Shown: positions 8,619 to 62,589 of the stretch, in pieces
Layout of the letters: each line of letters starts with the position of its first letter
Numbering within the stretch: the stretch's first letter is position 1
DNA from: Candidatus Poribacteria bacterium
GTDB lineage: Bacteria > Poribacteria > WGA-4E > WGA-3G
Direction: 5' to 3'
Length of the DNA: 64,000 nucleotides
Assembly: GCA_965197475.1 (NCBI GenBank)
Contig: CBDANF010000003.1
Location: 2,464,001-2,528,000, forward strand
Program-made: the position numbers and the translations under genes
The notes under the pieces: generated by a model
Seen by the model: the letters and a program-made list of their open reading frames with translations, nothing else
What the model was told of the DNA's origin: nothing
The model's database searches: none

Positions 8619-8817
8619 TTTAACCAATTGGGTAGAGCATCATAGATACTTCGTTGAGATGGTGGTTTCAAGCGCATACAACAGAAAAGCGCGTTTACAA
8701 ACGCGTCGACTGGAATAGGTTTTTGATTAAGTTCTGACATATTGTCGTAGGTCTTAGACTATATAATAATTCGCAATAAGTAGTTTTGGACTTGCAACAA
8801 GCCATTGAATTTTTCAC

Positions 8818-8847
8818 TTGACTCTCTTTTCTCCCACATGTTATACT
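8818..8847 (+). promoter_or_regulatory. Sigma70-type promoter for IS1595 cargo transcript
   Basis: TTGACT-N18-TATACT with extended -10 TG. Confidence 0.7.
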
Positions 8848-8851
8848 ATCC

Positions 8852-8930
8852 TAACGTTGTTGGTAGGGAATCTCATCTGTCTCGCTTGAGGCAGTCCCTA
8901 CCAAACCGAATGAGATCGGGAACAACGTTA
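8852..8930 (+). ncRNA. Putative pseudoknotted leader RNA
   Basis: P1 TAACGTTGTT/AACAACGTTA, P2 GGTAGGGA/TCCCTACC, P3 CTGTCTC/GAGGCAG, pseudoknot ATCTCAT/ATGAGAT; begins at the predicted TSS. Confidence 0.6.
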
Positions 8931-8990
8931 AGGTTAAACAACGTGATCCTATAAACAAAACACGTACAACCCTTACCATAAGGGAATATC

Positions 8991-9227
8991 ATGGTACTTT
9001 TAGTGTGGCCACTTCTTGTATTTGCTTACTATAAGCAAAAATACACGTTGAAAAACTGGCTTTTGTTTTTCGCTATCATTGGATCTATAGTCACTGTTCT
9101 CGGTGCTCGAGAATACGCATTAGTAGCATTGGTAGCCCAAATTGTCGGCATACCTATTATTTTTCTGTCGGCAAGATTCACCGCTTGGTGTATCAAACGG
9201 TATGTAAACCGAAAGAAAACAGACTAA
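8991..9227 (+). CDS. Small hydrophobic membrane protein (IS cargo)
   Basis: 78 aa, about 3 hydrophobic segments, basic C-terminal tail; RBS AAGGGA. Confidence 0.65.
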   Translation: MVLLVWPLLVFAYYKQKYTLKNWLLFFAIIGSIVTVLGAREYALVALVAQIVGIPIIFLSARFTAWCIKRYVNRKKTD

Positions 9228-9275
9228 CCCAACAACGAGGTGCCCCTGTCCCCTCTAACTCACAAAGGAACTATC

Positions 9276-9611
9276 ATGTTAATCATATTTCCAAAACCTG
9301 AACAAATCACTGGATTTTGTCCATTAGCCGTAAATCTTAATATTTATGATGAAATTGTGATCATCAAGAACAACGAATCAAACTTGTTCAATCTGACTCT
9401 GTTGAAACATGTAGACGCTCATGGATCGAACCAATCAACTTTTCTCTACAATTTGGGCATCTTCCAATCCGAGTCAGATTGCTATACATTGTTCCAAAAT
9501 ATTCTCGAAGCTTTGAATTCGGATCAAAAGACATTCGAGCTTCCGCCATCTGTGCTGCAAGCACCGCCTGAACCCGCGGATCATGCAAAGAAACGCCCTG
9601 GGTACCTTTAG
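9276..9611 (+). CDS. Hypothetical protein (IS cargo)
   Basis: ORF with RBS AAGGAA before MLIIFPK; converges on the transposase stop. Confidence 0.6.
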   Translation: MLIIFPKPEQITGFCPLAVNLNIYDEIVIIKNNESNLFNLTLLKHVDAHGSNQSTFLYNLGIFQSESDCYTLFQNILEALNSDQKTFELPPSVLQAPPEPADHAKKRPGYL

Positions 9612-9617
9612 TTTCAC

Positions 9618-10502
9618 TCATCTCATACTCTCATTAACAAACTTATCAAAGATGCTGTCAATGCTCCTATAGTTATACTTGTAGCACGCCTCTGCGACAT
9701 ACAGGGGCGTATATTCAGTCCAATAGTGGTGATGTGAACCATACCAAGCGCGTTTGAGAAGCGACCAAAACCCCTCAATCGTGTTTGTGTGGACATCACC
9801 GTCAACAAATTGCTCTTGATGATTGATGATATGATGCTTCATATCTCTACCGAGTGCGAGATAAGCATTATATTCATCGGTCATCAACTCCGAATCCTGA
9901 ACTTTCACGGCTCTTCGGATAAAGTCTAAAATAGTCCGTCCTGTCAAATCCCTTGCAAGTTGTGCTACAACTTTCCCACCGCGTTGGACAGCCCCGATGA
10001 TTGCGTCTTTATCAGTGCCACGACCACGCTTGGCAGGCTCCGCATCTGCTTTCTTGTTCGGCTTGCGAGGTTTACCCCCGATGTAAGTTTCATCAGCCTC
10101 TATGATGCCTTGTAATAGCACGTTGCTACCTTTCTTTGCCATTTCAGCACGGATACGAGTCATTATAAACCATGCAGTTTTCTGATTCAAGTCTAAATCA
10201 CGACTCAACTGGTAACTGGATAACGACTTCTTCGCATTCACAATCAACGAGATCGCCAAAAACCACTTCTGAAGTGCTATCTTTGTCCCGTGAAACACCG
10301 TGCCACACGTCACCTTGAAAGTAGCAGTGCAATCATGGCATTGCCAGCGTCCGATGCGTCCCAATTCCGTCTCTGTCCGTTCCGCAACGTTTAGACTATC
10401 ACAATGCGGACATCTTGGTTCACCACGCCACCGAATATATTCCAAATGCTCAATACATGCTTCTTGGTCAGGAAAACGCTCCATTACCTTCAATAAATCC
10501 AT
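9618..10502 (-). CDS. IS1595-family DDE transposase, copy 1
   Basis: Zn ribbon CPHC..C..C, IEADETYIGG, MTDEY, HTNTIEGFWSLLKR. Confidence 0.95.
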   Translation of the reverse strand: MDLLKVMERFPDQEACIEHLEYIRWRGEPRCPHCDSLNVAERTETELGRIGRWQCHDCTATFKVTCGTVFHGTKIALQKWFLAISLIVNAKKSLSSYQLSRDLDLNQKTAWFIMTRIRAEMAKKGSNVLLQGIIEADETYIGGKPRKPNKKADAEPAKRGRGTDKDAIIGAVQRGGKVVAQLARDLTGRTILDFIRRAVKVQDSELMTDEYNAYLALGRDMKHHIINHQEQFVDGDVHTNTIEGFWSLLKRAWYGSHHHYWTEYTPLYVAEACYKYNYRSIDSIFDKFVNESMR

Positions 10503-10729
10503 CAGATACTCCTTGAAATAGGAGTTGCTTTTTCTGACGGATTTCTGATATAATACCAGATAAGATTAGAACCGTCAAAAAGCAACTCGCTTTTTGTGTT
10601 CATTTAGGGGGCTACCAACCCCCTACTTTCTTATCTATATTGTATCATAGTTGCACAATTAAAACAAGTGGAAATGTAGTCTACATCTGTGTTTGTAGCG
10701 ATTTTTACATGTTTGTTGCAAGTCCAAAA

Positions 10730-10987
10730 CTACTTATTGCGTTTCACTTTTAGCCTTACATACAGAGAGTTTTGTAGAACTCGCCCTTGTAAAACTTGAT
10801 ACAAATTTTCGCGTAGTGATTCAGAAACCTTTTGACACGGACAATGAGAGGTTGGAATTTGCTCTTGACATGATCGATGCTCTGAAAGATGGAAAGCCAA
10901 CTTTTGAACTTCCACAGCATTTTCCCTCAAATCCTGATGACAAAAAGAACAAGATTGATAAGGCATACCTTTAGTTGTGTCCATCAC
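10730..10987 (-). pseudogene. Cys/His-rich cargo ORF of IS1595 copy 2, truncated by the copy 1 TIR
   Basis: Overlaps the transposase-2 stop; runs into the TIR at 10741. Confidence 0.45.
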
Positions 10988-11865
10988 CGCATACTTTCAT
11001 TAACAAACTTATCAAAGATACTGTCAATGCTCCTATAGTTGTACTTATAGCACGCCTCTGCTACATACAGGGGCGTATATTCAGTCCAGTAGTGGTGATG
11101 ACTTCCATACCAAGCTCGTTTGAGTAGACTCCAAAACCCCTCAATTGTGTTTGTGTGGACATCACCCTCAACAAATTGCGTTTGATGATCTATGATATGG
11201 TGTTTCATCTCCTTGCCGATAGCGAGATACGCCTTATACTCATCGGTCATCAACTCCGAATCCTCAACTTTGACGACTCTTCGGATAAAGTCTAAAATAG
11301 TCCGTCCTGTCAAATCTTTAGCGAGTTGTGCTACAACTTTCCCGCCCCGCTGTACTGCCCCGATAATAGCGTCTTTCTCTGTTCCACGTCCACGCTTGGC
11401 AGGCACGTGGTCTTCCTTCTTATTAGGCTTACGAGGTTTACCCCCGATGTAAGTTTCATCTGCCTCTATGATGCCTTGTAGTAGCACGTTACCTTTCTTT
11501 GCCATTTCAGCACGGATACGAGTCATGATATACCATGCTGTCTTTTGATTCAAGTCTAAATCGCGCGCAAGTTGATGACTTGACAAACTTTTCTTCGCAT
11601 TCGTTATCAACGAAATAGCCAAAAACCACTTCTGTAACGCTATCTTTGTCCCGTGAAACACCGACCTGCACGTCACCTTGAAACTCACTTGGCACTCGTG
11701 GCAGTTCCAACGACCGATACGACCGATTTCTGTTTCTGTCCGTTCTCCTATATGATCGCTTTCACAATGCGGACACACAGGTTTACCTCGCCACCGAATC
11801 TTCTCTAAATGCGAAATACAACTCTCTTGATCGGGAAAACGCTCCATCACCTTCAACAAATCCAT
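10984..11865 (-). CDS. IS1595-family DDE transposase, copy 2
   Basis: Same motifs as copy 1 and closely related; single remaining TIR at about 12062-12084. Confidence 0.95.
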   Translation of the reverse strand: MDLLKVMERFPDQESCISHLEKIRWRGKPVCPHCESDHIGERTETEIGRIGRWNCHECQVSFKVTCRSVFHGTKIALQKWFLAISLITNAKKSLSSHQLARDLDLNQKTAWYIMTRIRAEMAKKGNVLLQGIIEADETYIGGKPRKPNKKEDHVPAKRGRGTEKDAIIGAVQRGGKVVAQLAKDLTGRTILDFIRRVVKVEDSELMTDEYKAYLAIGKEMKHHIIDHQTQFVEGDVHTNTIEGFWSLLKRAWYGSHHHYWTEYTPLYVAEACYKYNYRSIDSIFDKFVNESMR

Positions 11866-12072
11866 CAGATAACTCCTTGAAATAGGAGTTGCTTTTTCTG
11901 ACGGATTTCTGATATAATACCAGATAAGATTAGAACCGTCAAAAAGCAACTCGCTTTTTGTGTTCATTTAGGGGGCTACCAACCCCCTATTTTCTTATCT
12001 ATATTATACCATATAAACCCAGTGGACACAAGGCTTTATAGCGATTTTTTAAAATTTTTCTCAAGTTCAAAA

Positions 12073-12597
12073 CTACTCATTGCGTTTCTTTTTACCACTA
12101 TAATAACCCTTTTGAGTTTGTGGGTCTTTGGGGCGTCGTATCGGGCGTTCGGTGCTATCATGAAAAAAATGTTCTCCTTCTTGATTTTGAGTTGATACTT
12201 TTGATGGAGCACATATAGGTGCGGGGTCTGTTTCCCGAGATGGCAACTCTCCAAGTTCTGCTAATGCTTTGTTCAATATCGATAAAAGCAAGTGAATCCA
12301 TCTATTAGCAAGAGGTTGAGACATGCCAAAGAGCGCACCGAATAGCACTTGTTTCGGTGCTTCACGAAGGTAAATCAGTATAAATAGCAACATATCTTCA
12401 GGTGTATCAAAACGACTATTTTTATACGGTTTATATCTCCGTTTTTTGCGCGGTTTTCCTGCAAGGGTATGTGTTTGAACATACTCTAAAAAACATTTAG
12501 TAAAATAAGGTGATAGTTCAGTCCAATCTTCTAAGGTATATCCGGTGAGGGACAGGAGCGTATCAGGTTTGTCCCTTAGTTCTTGAAAACTTATCAT
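12073..12597 (-). pseudogene. IS5/ISL2-like transposase, N-terminal half
   Basis: HTH_Tnp_4-like SLTGYT...LLFILIYLR; DSTERPIRRP..Q..YYSGKKKR, cut by the IS1595 TIR. Confidence 0.85.
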
Positions 12598-40683: not shown

Positions 40684-40953
40684 GGCTATGCACCCAGAGT
40701 TGACAAGCCTTTCCGGGCGTTGCCCATGTCGTTGGCTCAAGCCAGGCTACCTTGCGTCACACGAGAAAACTTATCTGCCGCTGCTTCTTTCCAGACCTGA
40801 CGGGGTTCAACAAGCTCTCGTTGCTCAAGACCTAGCTATCAACGCTACGTGCATGGGACAGTCCCCACAAAGACAGGCCGCATACTGGGAATTCCGTTCT
40901 GCTATAGCGGATTGCAGATACAGGGCACCGCTACCTCCCCACCTAGCATAGCC
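40684..40953 (-). ncRNA. ffs: SRP RNA, large (Alu-domain-containing) bacterial type
   Basis: 5' GGCTATGCTAGGTGGGGAGGTAGCGGTGCCCTGTA.CTGCAATCCGCT; domain IV TCAGGTCTGGAAAGAAGCAGC; paired ends; upstream of dnaX. Confidence 0.93.
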
Positions 40954-41041
40954 AAGCCGTTAAAGTTGTTCATCAAATGTGAAATATGCTGGTCGGGATA
41001 CGATCAGTTGCCGCGTAAAAAACCGACCTTACTCCTAAAAA

Positions 41042-41133
41042 TGGCGGAGAGAGTGGGATTCGAACCCACGGTACTGCAAAACAGCACACATGATTTCCAG
41101 TCATGCCAGTTCAACCAACTCCTGCATCTCTCC
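41042..41133 (-). tRNA. tRNA-Ser(GGA)
   Basis: Cloverleaf, anticodon stem CATGA/TCATG, long variable arm, encoded CCA. Confidence 0.95.
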
Positions 41134-41151
41134 GATAAGTATAGTAAAAAG

Positions 41152-41224
41152 TGGAGCAGACGGGATTCGAACCCGTGACCTCATCCGTGCGAGGGATGCG
41201 CTCTCCCAACTGAGCTACTGCCCC
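41152..41224 (-). tRNA. tRNA-Ala(CGC)
   Basis: G3-U70, anticodon stem CATCC/GGATG; CCA not encoded. Confidence 0.95.
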
Positions 41225-41291
41225 AAGAAAATCATAAAAAGTTAAAAGTGTAGCAAGCACCCGGAGCGTCACATAATATTCAATCAAAAAA

Positions 41292-41376
41292 CGGAGAGAG
41301 TGGGATTCGAACCCACGGTGACTTGCGCCACAACAGTTTTCGAGACTGTCCAGTTCAACCGCTCCTGCATCTCTCC
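41292..41376 (-). tRNA. tRNA-Ser(CGA)
   Basis: Anticodon stem ACAGT/ACTGT, long variable arm. Confidence 0.95.
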
Positions 41377-41495
41377 CTATTGTGTATGGTTATCGGTTTT
41401 TAGTAATCATTGATGTGCGCGATTGTTCTCGTAATGGTATGTTCTTTTAGTTGTAATAATGTTGTTAGATTAGTCCTTCTCTGTAAATTTTGGAT

Positions 41496-41849
41496 TTATA
41501 ATCTTGGTGGTTCTCCATATCTGTTTTTATAGGGGGACCCTCTAAAAAATCCGCACACGATAAGCAGGTATAAACTACCAACACAAGGAACAAGTCCCCA
41601 TAAAATATTCAACCCAGATCGGTCTGTGTCATGTAAACGTTTGATAACTATAACTATATCAGTATAAATAGTTATAAGACCGGGCGATACGAAAAGAATA
41701 GCTAAAACAGAATCTGGATCATCAGGGTCTCTTCCTACTGCAGTATAAATAAAAGCTACAAGAATATAAAAGAGAATAACCCCTATGGCATACATCCAAT
41801 ACTGAAAACGATTAATTCTACCCTTAAAAGAGAAAAGAAAACTTAACAT
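41496..41849 (-). CDS. DUF805 membrane protein
   Basis: FSFKGRINR..YW, KRLHDTDRSG, NRYG..P. Confidence 0.9.
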   Translation of the reverse strand: MLSFLFSFKGRINRFQYWMYAIGVILFYILVAFIYTAVGRDPDDPDSVLAILFVSPGLITIYTDIVIVIKRLHDTDRSGLNILWGLVPCVGSLYLLIVCGFFRGSPYKNRYGEPPRL

Positions 41850-41979
41850 TTCATTTCCAAATAATATTCTTATTTGAATTTTCGTTGTGCTTTTTGTTCT
41901 TCGCGTTCCTTGCATTCATACCCAACCAACTAACAAATCCTACCACTCTCTATACACAATACAGCCAAGAATAACATCA

Positions 41980-42492
41980 TTAACGACGGTTCTTAAAAAA
42001 TGATTTCAATAATGCGCTACTCTCTTCTGAACAGACACCGCTTACCAATTCCACTTGGTGATTCAATCGCTCGTCTCGAACAATATTATAGAGTGTTCCA
42101 GCTGCGCCTGCTTTTGGATCAACGGTAGCATAAACAACCTTCGGAATACGCGCCAGAACTATTGCCCCAGCACACATTGGGCACGGTTCCAAAGTTACAT
42201 ATAAGGTTGTATTCGTCAAACGCCAGTTGCCAAGTTTTTGCGATGCTTCTTGTATCACCAGCATTTCGGCGTGTGCAATTGGATTTCCAGATTGTTCCCG
42301 TATATTATAGGCAGCAGCTACACAAGTATTGTCTTTAACAATTATAGCACCAACAGGCACTTCGTCCTTTTCCCCTGCTTGTCGCGCTAATTCGAGTGCT
42401 TGCTTCATCCAGAAAACATCACTGTCCAAAATTTGACCAATAGGGACAGTATTTGAAACCGCTTTTAATTTTTCTGACTCTTGAGTGCTCAC
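41980..42492 (-). CDS. tadA: tRNA adenosine(34) deaminase
   Basis: EVPVGA, AHAE, TLEPCPMCAGA, FF..RR. Confidence 0.95.
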   Translation of the reverse strand: MSTQESEKLKAVSNTVPIGQILDSDVFWMKQALELARQAGEKDEVPVGAIIVKDNTCVAAAYNIREQSGNPIAHAEMLVIQEASQKLGNWRLTNTTLYVTLEPCPMCAGAIVLARIPKVVYATVDPKAGAAGTLYNIVRDERLNHQVELVSGVCSEESSALLKSFFKNRR

Positions 42493-42515
42493 AAGACATG
42501 CCCCAAGATTCTAAA

Positions 42516-42589
42516 AGCGCCTGAGAGGATTCGAACCCCCGGCCTTCTGATCCGTAGTCAGATGCTCTAATCCACTGAGCTACAGGCGC
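42516..42589 (-). tRNA. tRNA-Arg(ACG)
   Basis: Anticodon stem TCTGA/TCAGA with loop CTACGGA. Confidence 0.95.
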
Positions 42590-42727
42590 ATCTTTCACCA
42601 ACACATGGCGATCAAAATATGATTTAGTTAGGTTTTACTACGTTCAACTCAACCGACAAACTTAACACACGTTATACAGCACACAACACCGATTCAGATG
42701 GTGTGTAGGTGATTATAAGTTGAAAAA

Positions 42728-42812
42728 CGGAGAGGGTGGGATTCGAACCCACGATGGCTTTCGCCATAACTGCTTAGCAGGCAGTCCAGTTCAACCACTC
42801 CTGCACCTCTCC
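42728..42812 (-). tRNA. tRNA-Ser(GCT)
   Basis: Anticodon stem ACTGC/GCAGT, long variable arm. Confidence 0.95.
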
Positions 42813-42824
42813 AGACTTTAAATT

Positions 42825-42912
42825 TGGCGGTGGGAGTAGGATTCGAACCCACGGTGACTTGCGCCACAACGGTTTTCAAGACCGCCGCTTTCGTCCACTC
42901 AGCCATCCCACC
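42825..42912 (-). tRNA. tRNA-Ser(TGA)
   Basis: Anticodon stem GCGGT/ACCGT, encoded CCA. Confidence 0.95.
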
Positions 42913-62485: not shown

Positions 62486-62507
62486 AGTGTTGCAATATAC
62501 ACTTCAA
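62482..62507. terminator. Hairpin between the convergent decarboxylase and tmRNA-like gene
   Basis: TTGAAGTGT-N8-ACACTTCAA perfect 9-bp stem; no U-tract. Confidence 0.55.
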
Positions 62508-62589
62508 TGGAGGTGGTGGGAATTGAACCCACTTCCGGAGGAATTTGAAAGCGACCATGCTTTCGCCTCCGTCGAATCCATTCACCCCC
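62508..62589 (-). ncRNA. Minimal tmRNA-like RNA (tRNA-like domain only)
   Basis: GGGGGTG/CACCTCC-A acceptor with G3-U70; AATGGATTCGAC D-loop; CGGAGG/CCTCCG helix 2a; GTGGG-TTCAATT-CCCAC T-arm; no tag ORF. Confidence 0.75.

Follow-up and report, generated by a model that had tools for sequence, protein, structure and literature searches.

A promoter-coupled, pseudoknotted leader RNA of selfish genes in Poribacteria, first seen in an IS1595 element, and its possible role as a two-state translation gate

Which genes does a structured RNA serve when it lies at the start of a transcript inside a bacterial insertion sequence (IS), and how might it act on them? The question is raised by element A, an IS1595-family element of 1970 bp (8772-10741, plus strand) that occurs in six copies with inverted repeats in the genome of a Candidatus Poribacteria bacterium. 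The stretch of 64,000 nucleotides that was analyzed is called the window here, and positions are counted from its first letter. A preliminary description of this DNA had proposed that a pseudoknotted, switch-like leader RNA of no named family gates a small membrane protein of 78 amino acids (aa) within the element. The analysis confirms that the leader RNA is real, strongly conserved and pseudoknotted and that it lies at the predicted transcript start within the IS1595 element, and both its switch-like layout and its lack of a family name held up; a gate specific to the 78-aa protein did not. The motif is instead a general leader of many selfish genes, above all tnpB.

The leader RNA motif of element A is 77 nt long (8853-8929, plus strand), as defined by its folding energy and by covariation. 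Its closing helix, P1, joins 8853-8861 (AACGTTGTT) to 8921-8929 (AACAACGTT) and reaches 10 bp with the T8852-A8930 pair included. P2 pairs 8862-8869 (GGTAGGGA) with 8895-8902 (TCCCTACC), and P3 pairs 8877-8883 (CTGTCTC) with 8888-8894 (GAGGCAG), with one G-U pair and a GCTT loop. The remaining hairpin, P4 (8906-8909, CCGA; 8916-8919, TCGG), which the preliminary description does not mention, holds in its loop the 3' strand of the pseudoknot, ATGAGAT at 8910-8916, the partner of which is ATCTCAT at 8870-8876, the J2/3 strand that forms a bulge between P2 and P3. Since the P4 loop carries this strand, the fold is a three-way junction with a loop-to-bulge contact, that is, a compact junction of P1, P2-P3 and P4 locked by pairing between the P4 loop and the P2-P3 bulge. 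The minimum free energy (MFE) structure of 8850-9000 given by RNAfold recovers P1, P2, P3 and P4 together with a hairpin farther downstream, CCCTTA-CCA-TAAGGG (8970-8984, plus strand), that pairs the ribosome-binding site (RBS) of the first open reading frame (ORF1); the 3' arm of this RBS hairpin is the Shine-Dalgarno sequence AAGGGA, 6 nt ahead of the ATG at 8991. The MFE is -48.6 kcal/mol against -30.5 +/- 3.6 kcal/mol for shuffled sequences (z = -5.0), and none of 200 shuffles was as low.

Directly ahead of the leader, at the left end of the element, a promoter scan places a near-consensus sigma-70-type promoter (8818-8847, plus strand; 10 of 12 matches), with TTGACT at 8818-8823, an 18-nt spacer and TG-TATACT at 8842-8847. 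P1 starts 5 to 6 nt past the -10 box, and by promoter geometry the transcription start site (TSS) in the window would lie at about 8853-8855.

The Rfam 15 scan bore out the statement that no named family is involved. At the gathering threshold the window yields just the signal recognition particle (SRP) RNA, tRNAs and transfer-messenger RNA (tmRNA); between 8600 and 9700 at E values up to 10 there are chance matches only (E >4), and 37 further motif-bearing loci (18 + 19) gave no match. A "Poribacteria-1 RNA motif," by its name a candidate structured RNA of Poribacteria, reportedly stands in the motif lists of Weinberg et al. from 2017. That name is absent from the main text of the 2017 paper and was not found by a full-text literature search. 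Three accessions tried for it were discarded, since RF03024 is Rothia-sucC, RF03016 is RT-12 and RF03008 is malK-II. With no Rfam 15 match in 38 stretches, Poribacteria-1 is a different RNA if it is in Rfam; otherwise it could be identical with the leader.

How widely is the structure kept? A first covariance model, built on the leaders of element A and of the sister elements C1 and D of the same genome, matched in 92 of 151 related genomes. The improved model, R2, found the motif in 98 of the 151 genomes, which were sampled across the phylum. By genus, it was present in 32 of 38 genomes of g1, 47 of 56 of g5 and 16 of 20 of g11, in the one genome of g3 and in one of two of g4, with no match in genomes sampled from 17 other genera. 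A strict sequence pattern, run over one genome per GTDB species, picked out 72 stretches, 69 from Poribacteria metagenome-assembled genomes and 3 titled "uncultured bacterium," and additionally matched 7 IMG/VR stretches and 4 metagenome stretches. By these sequence searches, the motif is restricted to two families of Poribacteria, which are sponge symbionts.

All of the helices named in the preliminary description are present, folded and covarying across this collection. Over 99 matches, corresponding to 78 distinct rows, 98.3% of the cells are paired, pseudoknot included; 25 of 32 pairs change on both sides, among them 4 of 6 pseudoknot pairs, and neither 500 shuffles nor any slid register came near the observed pairing and covariation. 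These sets are biased toward copies caught by the model and the pattern, and related copies are not independent. A divergent lineage in g11, with P2 formed by GUGGGAGA and UCUCCCAC, is 95.5% paired, with covariation at 26 of 31 pairs. The comparison indicates that conservation of the structure lies far beyond chance. Frequent U-G pairs are compatible only with the plus strand. The junction of P2, pseudoknot and P3 carries a conserved core, GAGA-A-U ... G-UCUC, and the C-G pair closing P3 and the first and fifth pseudoknot pairs are invariant in two lineages; the junction strands J2/4 and J4/1 are variable, both in how long they are and in what they read, and few unpaired nucleotides are conserved.

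Within the same genome, the sister IS1595 elements B, C1, D and E carry RNAs built alike, in the same place and behind the same type of promoter. Compensatory changes occur in P1, P2, P3, P4 and the pseudoknot among the five variants; the pseudoknot strands, for example, read ATCTCAT/ATGAGAT in A, TTTCTAT/ATAGAAA in B, ATGTTAC/GTAACAT in C1, ATGTTAG/CTAACAT in D and CTGTTAG/CTAACAG in E. The sequence of P2 is mostly changed in B and E. A MAFFT alignment of the five placed these two wrongly, and they are taken as homologous to the other leaders by position and by a reading of the variants by eye; with its filters switched off, model R1 gave B 24.6 bits (E = 1.9e-4) and element E 16.2 bits (E = 0.029), and R2 under default filters listed neither. 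The cargo ORFs between the leader RNA and a conserved second ORF (ORF2) vary from one IS variant to the next, and the RBS hairpin is found only in variant A. A minimal IS family, H, has neither cargo nor leader.

The leader is one unit with its own strong promoter, and we regard it as a previously uncatalogued 5'-leader motif. Of 85 distinct contexts, 78 show it preceded by a promoter that agrees with the consensus at 9 or more of 12 positions; the -10 box ends 7 to 9 nt ahead of the P1 core, a spacing that puts the beginning of P1 on the inferred TSS or no more than a few nucleotides from it. Contigs from four sponge metatranscriptome runs of one study, compared with 8650-10850, also reach into the IS flanks, span genes of both strands and are uninformative on TSS, transcript ends and strand. 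The genes that follow the motif were classified in 74 distinct contexts, a set biased by the pattern and model used: 38 are TnpB-like, 7 encode GIY-YIG proteins and 3 encode N6/N4 DNA methylases, the rest being mostly singletons. Pfam confirms these downstream families. The genes, the IS1595 cargo included, are unrelated except for being mobile or selfish.

The preliminary description had also pointed out a second AACAACGT at about 8937 as an alternative partner for P1, and this proved to be a conserved property of the motif, so that "switch-like" is a fair term. In what follows, the 5' strand of P1 is called X, its adjacent partner X'1 and the second copy of that partner X'2; pairing of X with X'2 gives the helix P1'. 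In the window, the second AACAACGT occupies 8937-8944 and X'2 as a whole 8937-8945 (plus strand, AACAACGTG), the alternative partner of 8854-8861. Of 72 distinct copies, which include 21 distinct X cores, 64 have an X'2 located 2 to 32 nt past P1 to which X can be joined by 7 or more contiguous bp, compared with 12% in a control with the X of unrelated copies. In some copies X has a better fit with X'2 than with X'1. By nearest-neighbor energies the two states lie close together, P1' minus P1 having a median of +1.6 kcal/mol; in the window copy the P1 state comes to -49.4 and the P1' state to -45.3 kcal/mol.

In front of tnpB, the position of X'2 relative to the downstream gene suggests a link to translation. 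A long ORF opens within 90 nt in 32 contexts, 24 of which have an in-frame ATG inside X'2 (tnpB of g1 and g5), and a Shine-Dalgarno of the GGAG/AGGA type stands in the linker between X'1 and X'2 of tnpB rows (seen by eye and uncounted). In g11, X'2, which resembles AGAAAGAC, begins 13 to 17 nt ahead of the ATG in 12 of 14 contexts and is complementary to the 16S 3' tail, CCUCCUUUCU, identified in this genome. The mutually exclusive pairing overlaps the ribosome site in tnpB contexts (24/32; 12/14) but not in IS1595 or GIY-YIG contexts or in the window. An ATG or GTG often falls within X'2 of the IS1595-type leaders as well; a conserved leader peptide starting there was considered and discarded, the frames running from 3 to about 25 codons without conservation.

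The overlap of X'2 with the start codon or the Shine-Dalgarno position leads us to an anti-initiation-site and decoy model, in which the leader is a cis-acting two-state translation gate; we give this reading an even chance of being right. The transcript would begin inside P1 or within a few nucleotides of it, so that its 5'-terminal strand is X. This strand could close the domain with the adjacent X'1 or, alternatively, pair with X'2, which lies a few nucleotides farther on. Before tnpB, the gene that the leader most often precedes, X'2 would be the translation-initiation region itself, covering the start codon in g1 and g5 and, in g11, the Shine-Dalgarno position; X would then be an anti-initiation-site strand, X'1 a decoy of the initiation region and X'2 the real initiation site. 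With the pseudoknotted domain folded, X would be occupied by the decoy, leaving the ribosome site free, while pairing of X with X'2 would mask this site. The leader would in this way set, or conditionally switch, translation of the downstream selfish gene, and the paired 5' end would probably also shield the mRNA. In the window, the cassette would drive the cargo operon ORF1-ORF2, antisense into the transposase gene. By eye, none of the 33 contexts displayed has a U-tract terminator after P1, which argues for action in cis rather than as a stand-alone RNA.

Several observations weigh against the gate. Outside tnpB, X'2 lies off the start site, 25 to 36 nt upstream in 8 of the 32 long-ORF contexts (GIY-YIG), and in the window copy, where the gate logic is weakest for this reason, X'2 lies 47 nt before ORF1. 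The energies given for P1 and P1' omit the pseudoknot and tertiary contacts, which should favor P1. The TSS is placed by promoter geometry, and the metatranscriptome runs are contigs that also span IS flanks. Tandem arrays stand behind a single promoter with no obvious ORF in the few hundred bases that follow, and the domain may therefore have a function of its own. The GAGA-A-U ... G-UCUC core could be a binding site for a ligand or a protein, a feature that the gate model leaves unexplained. Finally, the sets analyzed favor what the model and pattern can find, and kin among them are not independent.

The foremost rival, which we think unlikely, is a passive 5'-terminal stabilizer or insulator: a paired triphosphate end would resist nucleases, the ribosome site would be shielded from the upstream context, nothing would switch, and X'2 would be merely a back-up partner or a relic. 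A domain that in 78 of 85 contexts begins where the TSS is inferred fits this, as does an architecture that is kept while J2/4 and J4/1 vary and while B and E differ in P2 sequence; the service to unrelated genes and the distance of X'2 from the start in IS1595 and GIY-YIG contexts fit it too. It leaves unexplained, however, why X'2 tracks X over 21 X sequences and why X'2 overlaps the start codon or Shine-Dalgarno position in two tnpB lineages, and for 5'-end protection a simple hairpin would suffice.

The conserved core raises the further possibility that the junction is a sensor. In general form, the leader would be a riboswitch-like class for mobile elements in which translation of TnpB and other selfish proteins is on only when a signal stabilizes the decoy helix, and to this we assign a rather small probability. 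The signal might be a small molecule, a host protein or the concentration of the element's own RNA. Since the two strands of the pseudoknot complement each other and their sequence changes from one of the five IS variants to another, kissing in trans between leaders of one family is also conceivable, which would allow family-specific copy-number sensing. The stricter version, a true riboswitch or protein-responsive sensor in which a small molecule, an ion or a host or element protein binds the P2/pseudoknot/P3 junction, stabilizes P1 and frees the ribosome site, has a slimmer chance still. In its favor are a three-way junction that resembles an aptamer and is braced by a long-range tertiary contact, a competing helix that resembles an expression platform, and the GAGA-A-U/G-UCUC core with its invariant P3-closing C-G and invariant pseudoknot pairs 1 and 5 in two lineages. 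Of what defines a riboswitch, the covarying structured domain is present, but an invariant unpaired pocket and a coherent gene theme were not found: very few unpaired nucleotides are conserved, the junction strands are variable, P2 is mostly altered in sequence in B and E, and the downstream genes have no metabolic theme in common. The adenine "add" riboswitch is a translational ON-type switch with a three-way junction and a distal tertiary contact. As in such ON-type riboswitches, P1 of the leader would compete with a pairing that masks the ribosome site, and a long-range loop contact stabilizes the fold; unlike them, the leader has no conserved ligand pocket, known ligand, metabolic gene theme or Rfam match, and the part of the competitor would fall to a decoy that duplicates the ribosome site and not to an anti-anti-Shine-Dalgarno chain.

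Tandem arrays bear on a third alternative. Behind an IS1595-type end and one promoter, the motif is repeated as three complete units (L071, G052:C28:260060-260299) or two (L072) with an 84-nt period and 11-nt linkers, and by eye no obvious ORF follows within a few hundred bases. Such arrays resemble those of tRNAs or small RNAs (sRNAs), and in our reading of the fold, P1 stacked on P4 with a loop-bulge elbow resembles an acceptor plus T-arm. The leader might therefore be a tRNA-shaped processing signal or a stand-alone sRNA, with an RNase P- or RNase Z-type cut after P1 releasing an RNA of about 80 nt that acts in trans or as a decoy. We consider this quite improbable: ARAGORN detects no tRNA gene in 8700-9100 and the Rfam tRNA model is silent at E values up to 10, no CCA-like tail follows P1 and no terminator follows it in ordinary contexts, and X'2 is given no role.

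The mechanism originally put forward, in which the leader gates a toxin-like 78-aa ORF either by an exchange between the P2 5' strand and the anti-RBS or by antisense control as in type I toxin or phage P1 c4/P4 CI systems, is very improbable. The RBS hairpin at 8970-8984 does exist and is part of the MFE structure, and CCCTTACCA is able to pair with TGGTAGGG with one bulge. The resulting P2/anti-RBS fold nevertheless comes to -33.1 kcal/mol against -49.4, about 16 kcal/mol above the MFE; it is not conserved and finds no comparative support, so this pairing was rejected. Dedicated control of the 78-aa ORF is contradicted from two sides: the motif also precedes TnpB, GIY-YIG and methylase genes, and the ORF1 homologues, which occur in 4 of 150 other genomes, lack the leader motif upstream in three cases, while in the fourth (68% identical, the closest) the motif is truncated and the RBS hairpin is absent. 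As to a type I toxin, ORF1 belongs to no family in Pfam, NCBIfam or PADLOC, no antisense promoter was found over its 5' region, and its homologues occur without the motif.

In the P1 c4 and P4 CI systems, hairpin loops act on separate target repeats after RNase P processing. The leader shares with them a structured leader RNA and complementary repeats downstream near the ribosome site, but its loops pair with each other and it is the P1 strand that is duplicated. No conserved third target copy of the pseudoknot loops exists in the five IS variants, and the C4 model of Rfam does not match the leader. One extra ATCTCAT (9620) in element A, without a counterpart in B, C1, D or E, was examined as such a copy and put down to chance. 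Equally improbable is a new self-cleaving ribozyme in the 5' untranslated region of selfish genes: the setting, a small pseudoknotted RNA close to mobile genes, is typical of twister, pistol and hatchet ribozymes, but no twister, pistol, hatchet, hammerhead or HDV model of Rfam matches, few unpaired nucleotides are conserved, and a start at the TSS leaves little to cleave off.

If the leader is a translation gate, its nearest relatives in behavior may be found among mobile elements. The fold-back inhibition of IS10 and the 5' stem-loop of IS200 tnpA are cis RNA structures that limit transposase translation. As in those cases, a mobile element would hide an initiation region by its own mRNA leader; unlike them, the leader is a pseudoknotted domain of about 75 nt plus a decoy, it stands before tnpB, cargo, GIY-YIG and methylase genes and before no DDE transposase, and in the window it drives the strand that does not encode the transposase. 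The omega RNAs of TnpB and IscB, HEARO and the IS605-orfB-I/II RNAs are likewise structured RNAs beside tnpB, as the leader is in 38 of 74 distinct contexts. In contrast to these, it lies upstream, measures about 75 nt, has no guide segment, also accompanies unrelated genes and has no Rfam match. A full-text literature search returned nothing relevant on leader-level control of tnpB, and within the literature searched the motif would be the first such element reported for tnpB genes.

The motif would add a class of structured RNA with good support from a phylum that is uncultured and confined to sponges, and covariation alone supports its pseudoknot. Its proposed design, in which a domain coupled to a promoter is closed by a copy of the ribosome site of the gene itself, may explain how Poribacteria symbionts hold very many IS copies that are expressed yet bounded, and it illustrates that promoter-leader cassettes can be common to unrelated selfish genes. 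We have filed it as a new RNA family of putative cis-acting translational leaders with a distinctive decoy-closed, pseudoknotted design.

The element that carries the leader in the window is a member of the IS1595 family by its transposase domains, inverted repeats, identical copies and target duplication. Its order is left inverted repeat, promoter, leader RNA, ORF1, ORF2, transposase on the minus strand and right inverted repeat. The left terminal repeat (8772-8800, 29 bp) is 100% complementary to its partner at 10713-10741. The transposase (9618-10502, minus strand, 294 aa), convergent with the leader-driven operon, matches DDE_Tnp_IS1595 (PF12762) at 1.6e-36 and, at its N terminus, Zn_ribbon_IS1595 (PF12760) at 1.4e-9. 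The six genomic copies are 100% identical with the same ends. An AT-rich 8-bp target duplication, AAACTAAA, borders one copy, and flanks are exchanged between other copies, which shows inversions by recombination between IS copies.

ORF1 (8991-9227, plus strand), the 78-aa product of which has three hydrophobic stretches, is the variable cargo gene of variant A. ORF2 (9276-9611, plus strand, 111 aa) is kept beside the 3' end of the transposase gene in the sister IS; its product has a C-terminal motif F-E-L-P, and a homologue fragment lies at 10816-10974. Like ORF1, ORF2 has no family in Pfam, NCBIfam or PADLOC, and it may be an unrecognized IS1595 accessory protein. A transcript of the leader-driven ORF1-ORF2 operon would enter the transposase gene antisense. 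A strong, terminator-like hairpin on the plus strand at 10605-10625 lies just past the transposase start, so that such a transcript could cross the whole transposase gene.

Directly ahead of ORF2 lies a conserved element of 27 to 35 nt (9233-9259; a hairpin resembling CAACGAGGGGAC-TCT-GTCCCCTCTAAC), which is found again at 91 to 94% identity before ORF2 homologues of other IS variants, including loci L007-L011. One contig from an RNA library fuses 8794 to 9233 and 9259 to 10742 and looks like a derivative of the miniature inverted-repeat transposable element kind. A second conserved, apparently structured stretch, GCTTGA...GTGCATAACGCA...ATGCAC...TCAAGC, occurs 3' of the leader (about positions 175-270 of the element B at L019; also L007 and L043-L045) and precedes a small, very basic ORF of about 42 to 56 aa, resembling MAKKATGTRVRDAK... 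in sequence.

To the right of element A, the window holds a truncated sister element B (10742-12084), the full length of which is about 2296 bp, with about 10 copies. Element A is inserted at an 8-bp junction inside B, and the left part of B adjoins another copy of A (G000:C3:2588040-2589011), which indicates that two A copies recombined, with an inversion of about 115 kb. A further repeat family, with more than 25 genomic copies at 97 to 100% identity, starts within 12079-12500. A distant IS1595 family, G (G000:C3:1329712-1330700), has another leader in the same place, a long irregular hairpin, the 5' strand of which, GACCAAAC, is repeated downstream, the mirror image of the X'/X'2 arrangement. 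Elsewhere in the window (40686-42912 and 62505-62589), a large SRP RNA with an Alu domain adjoins a cluster of six tRNA genes, and the Rfam tmRNA match of just 85 nt covers model positions 1-374; the tmRNA may be split or permuted.

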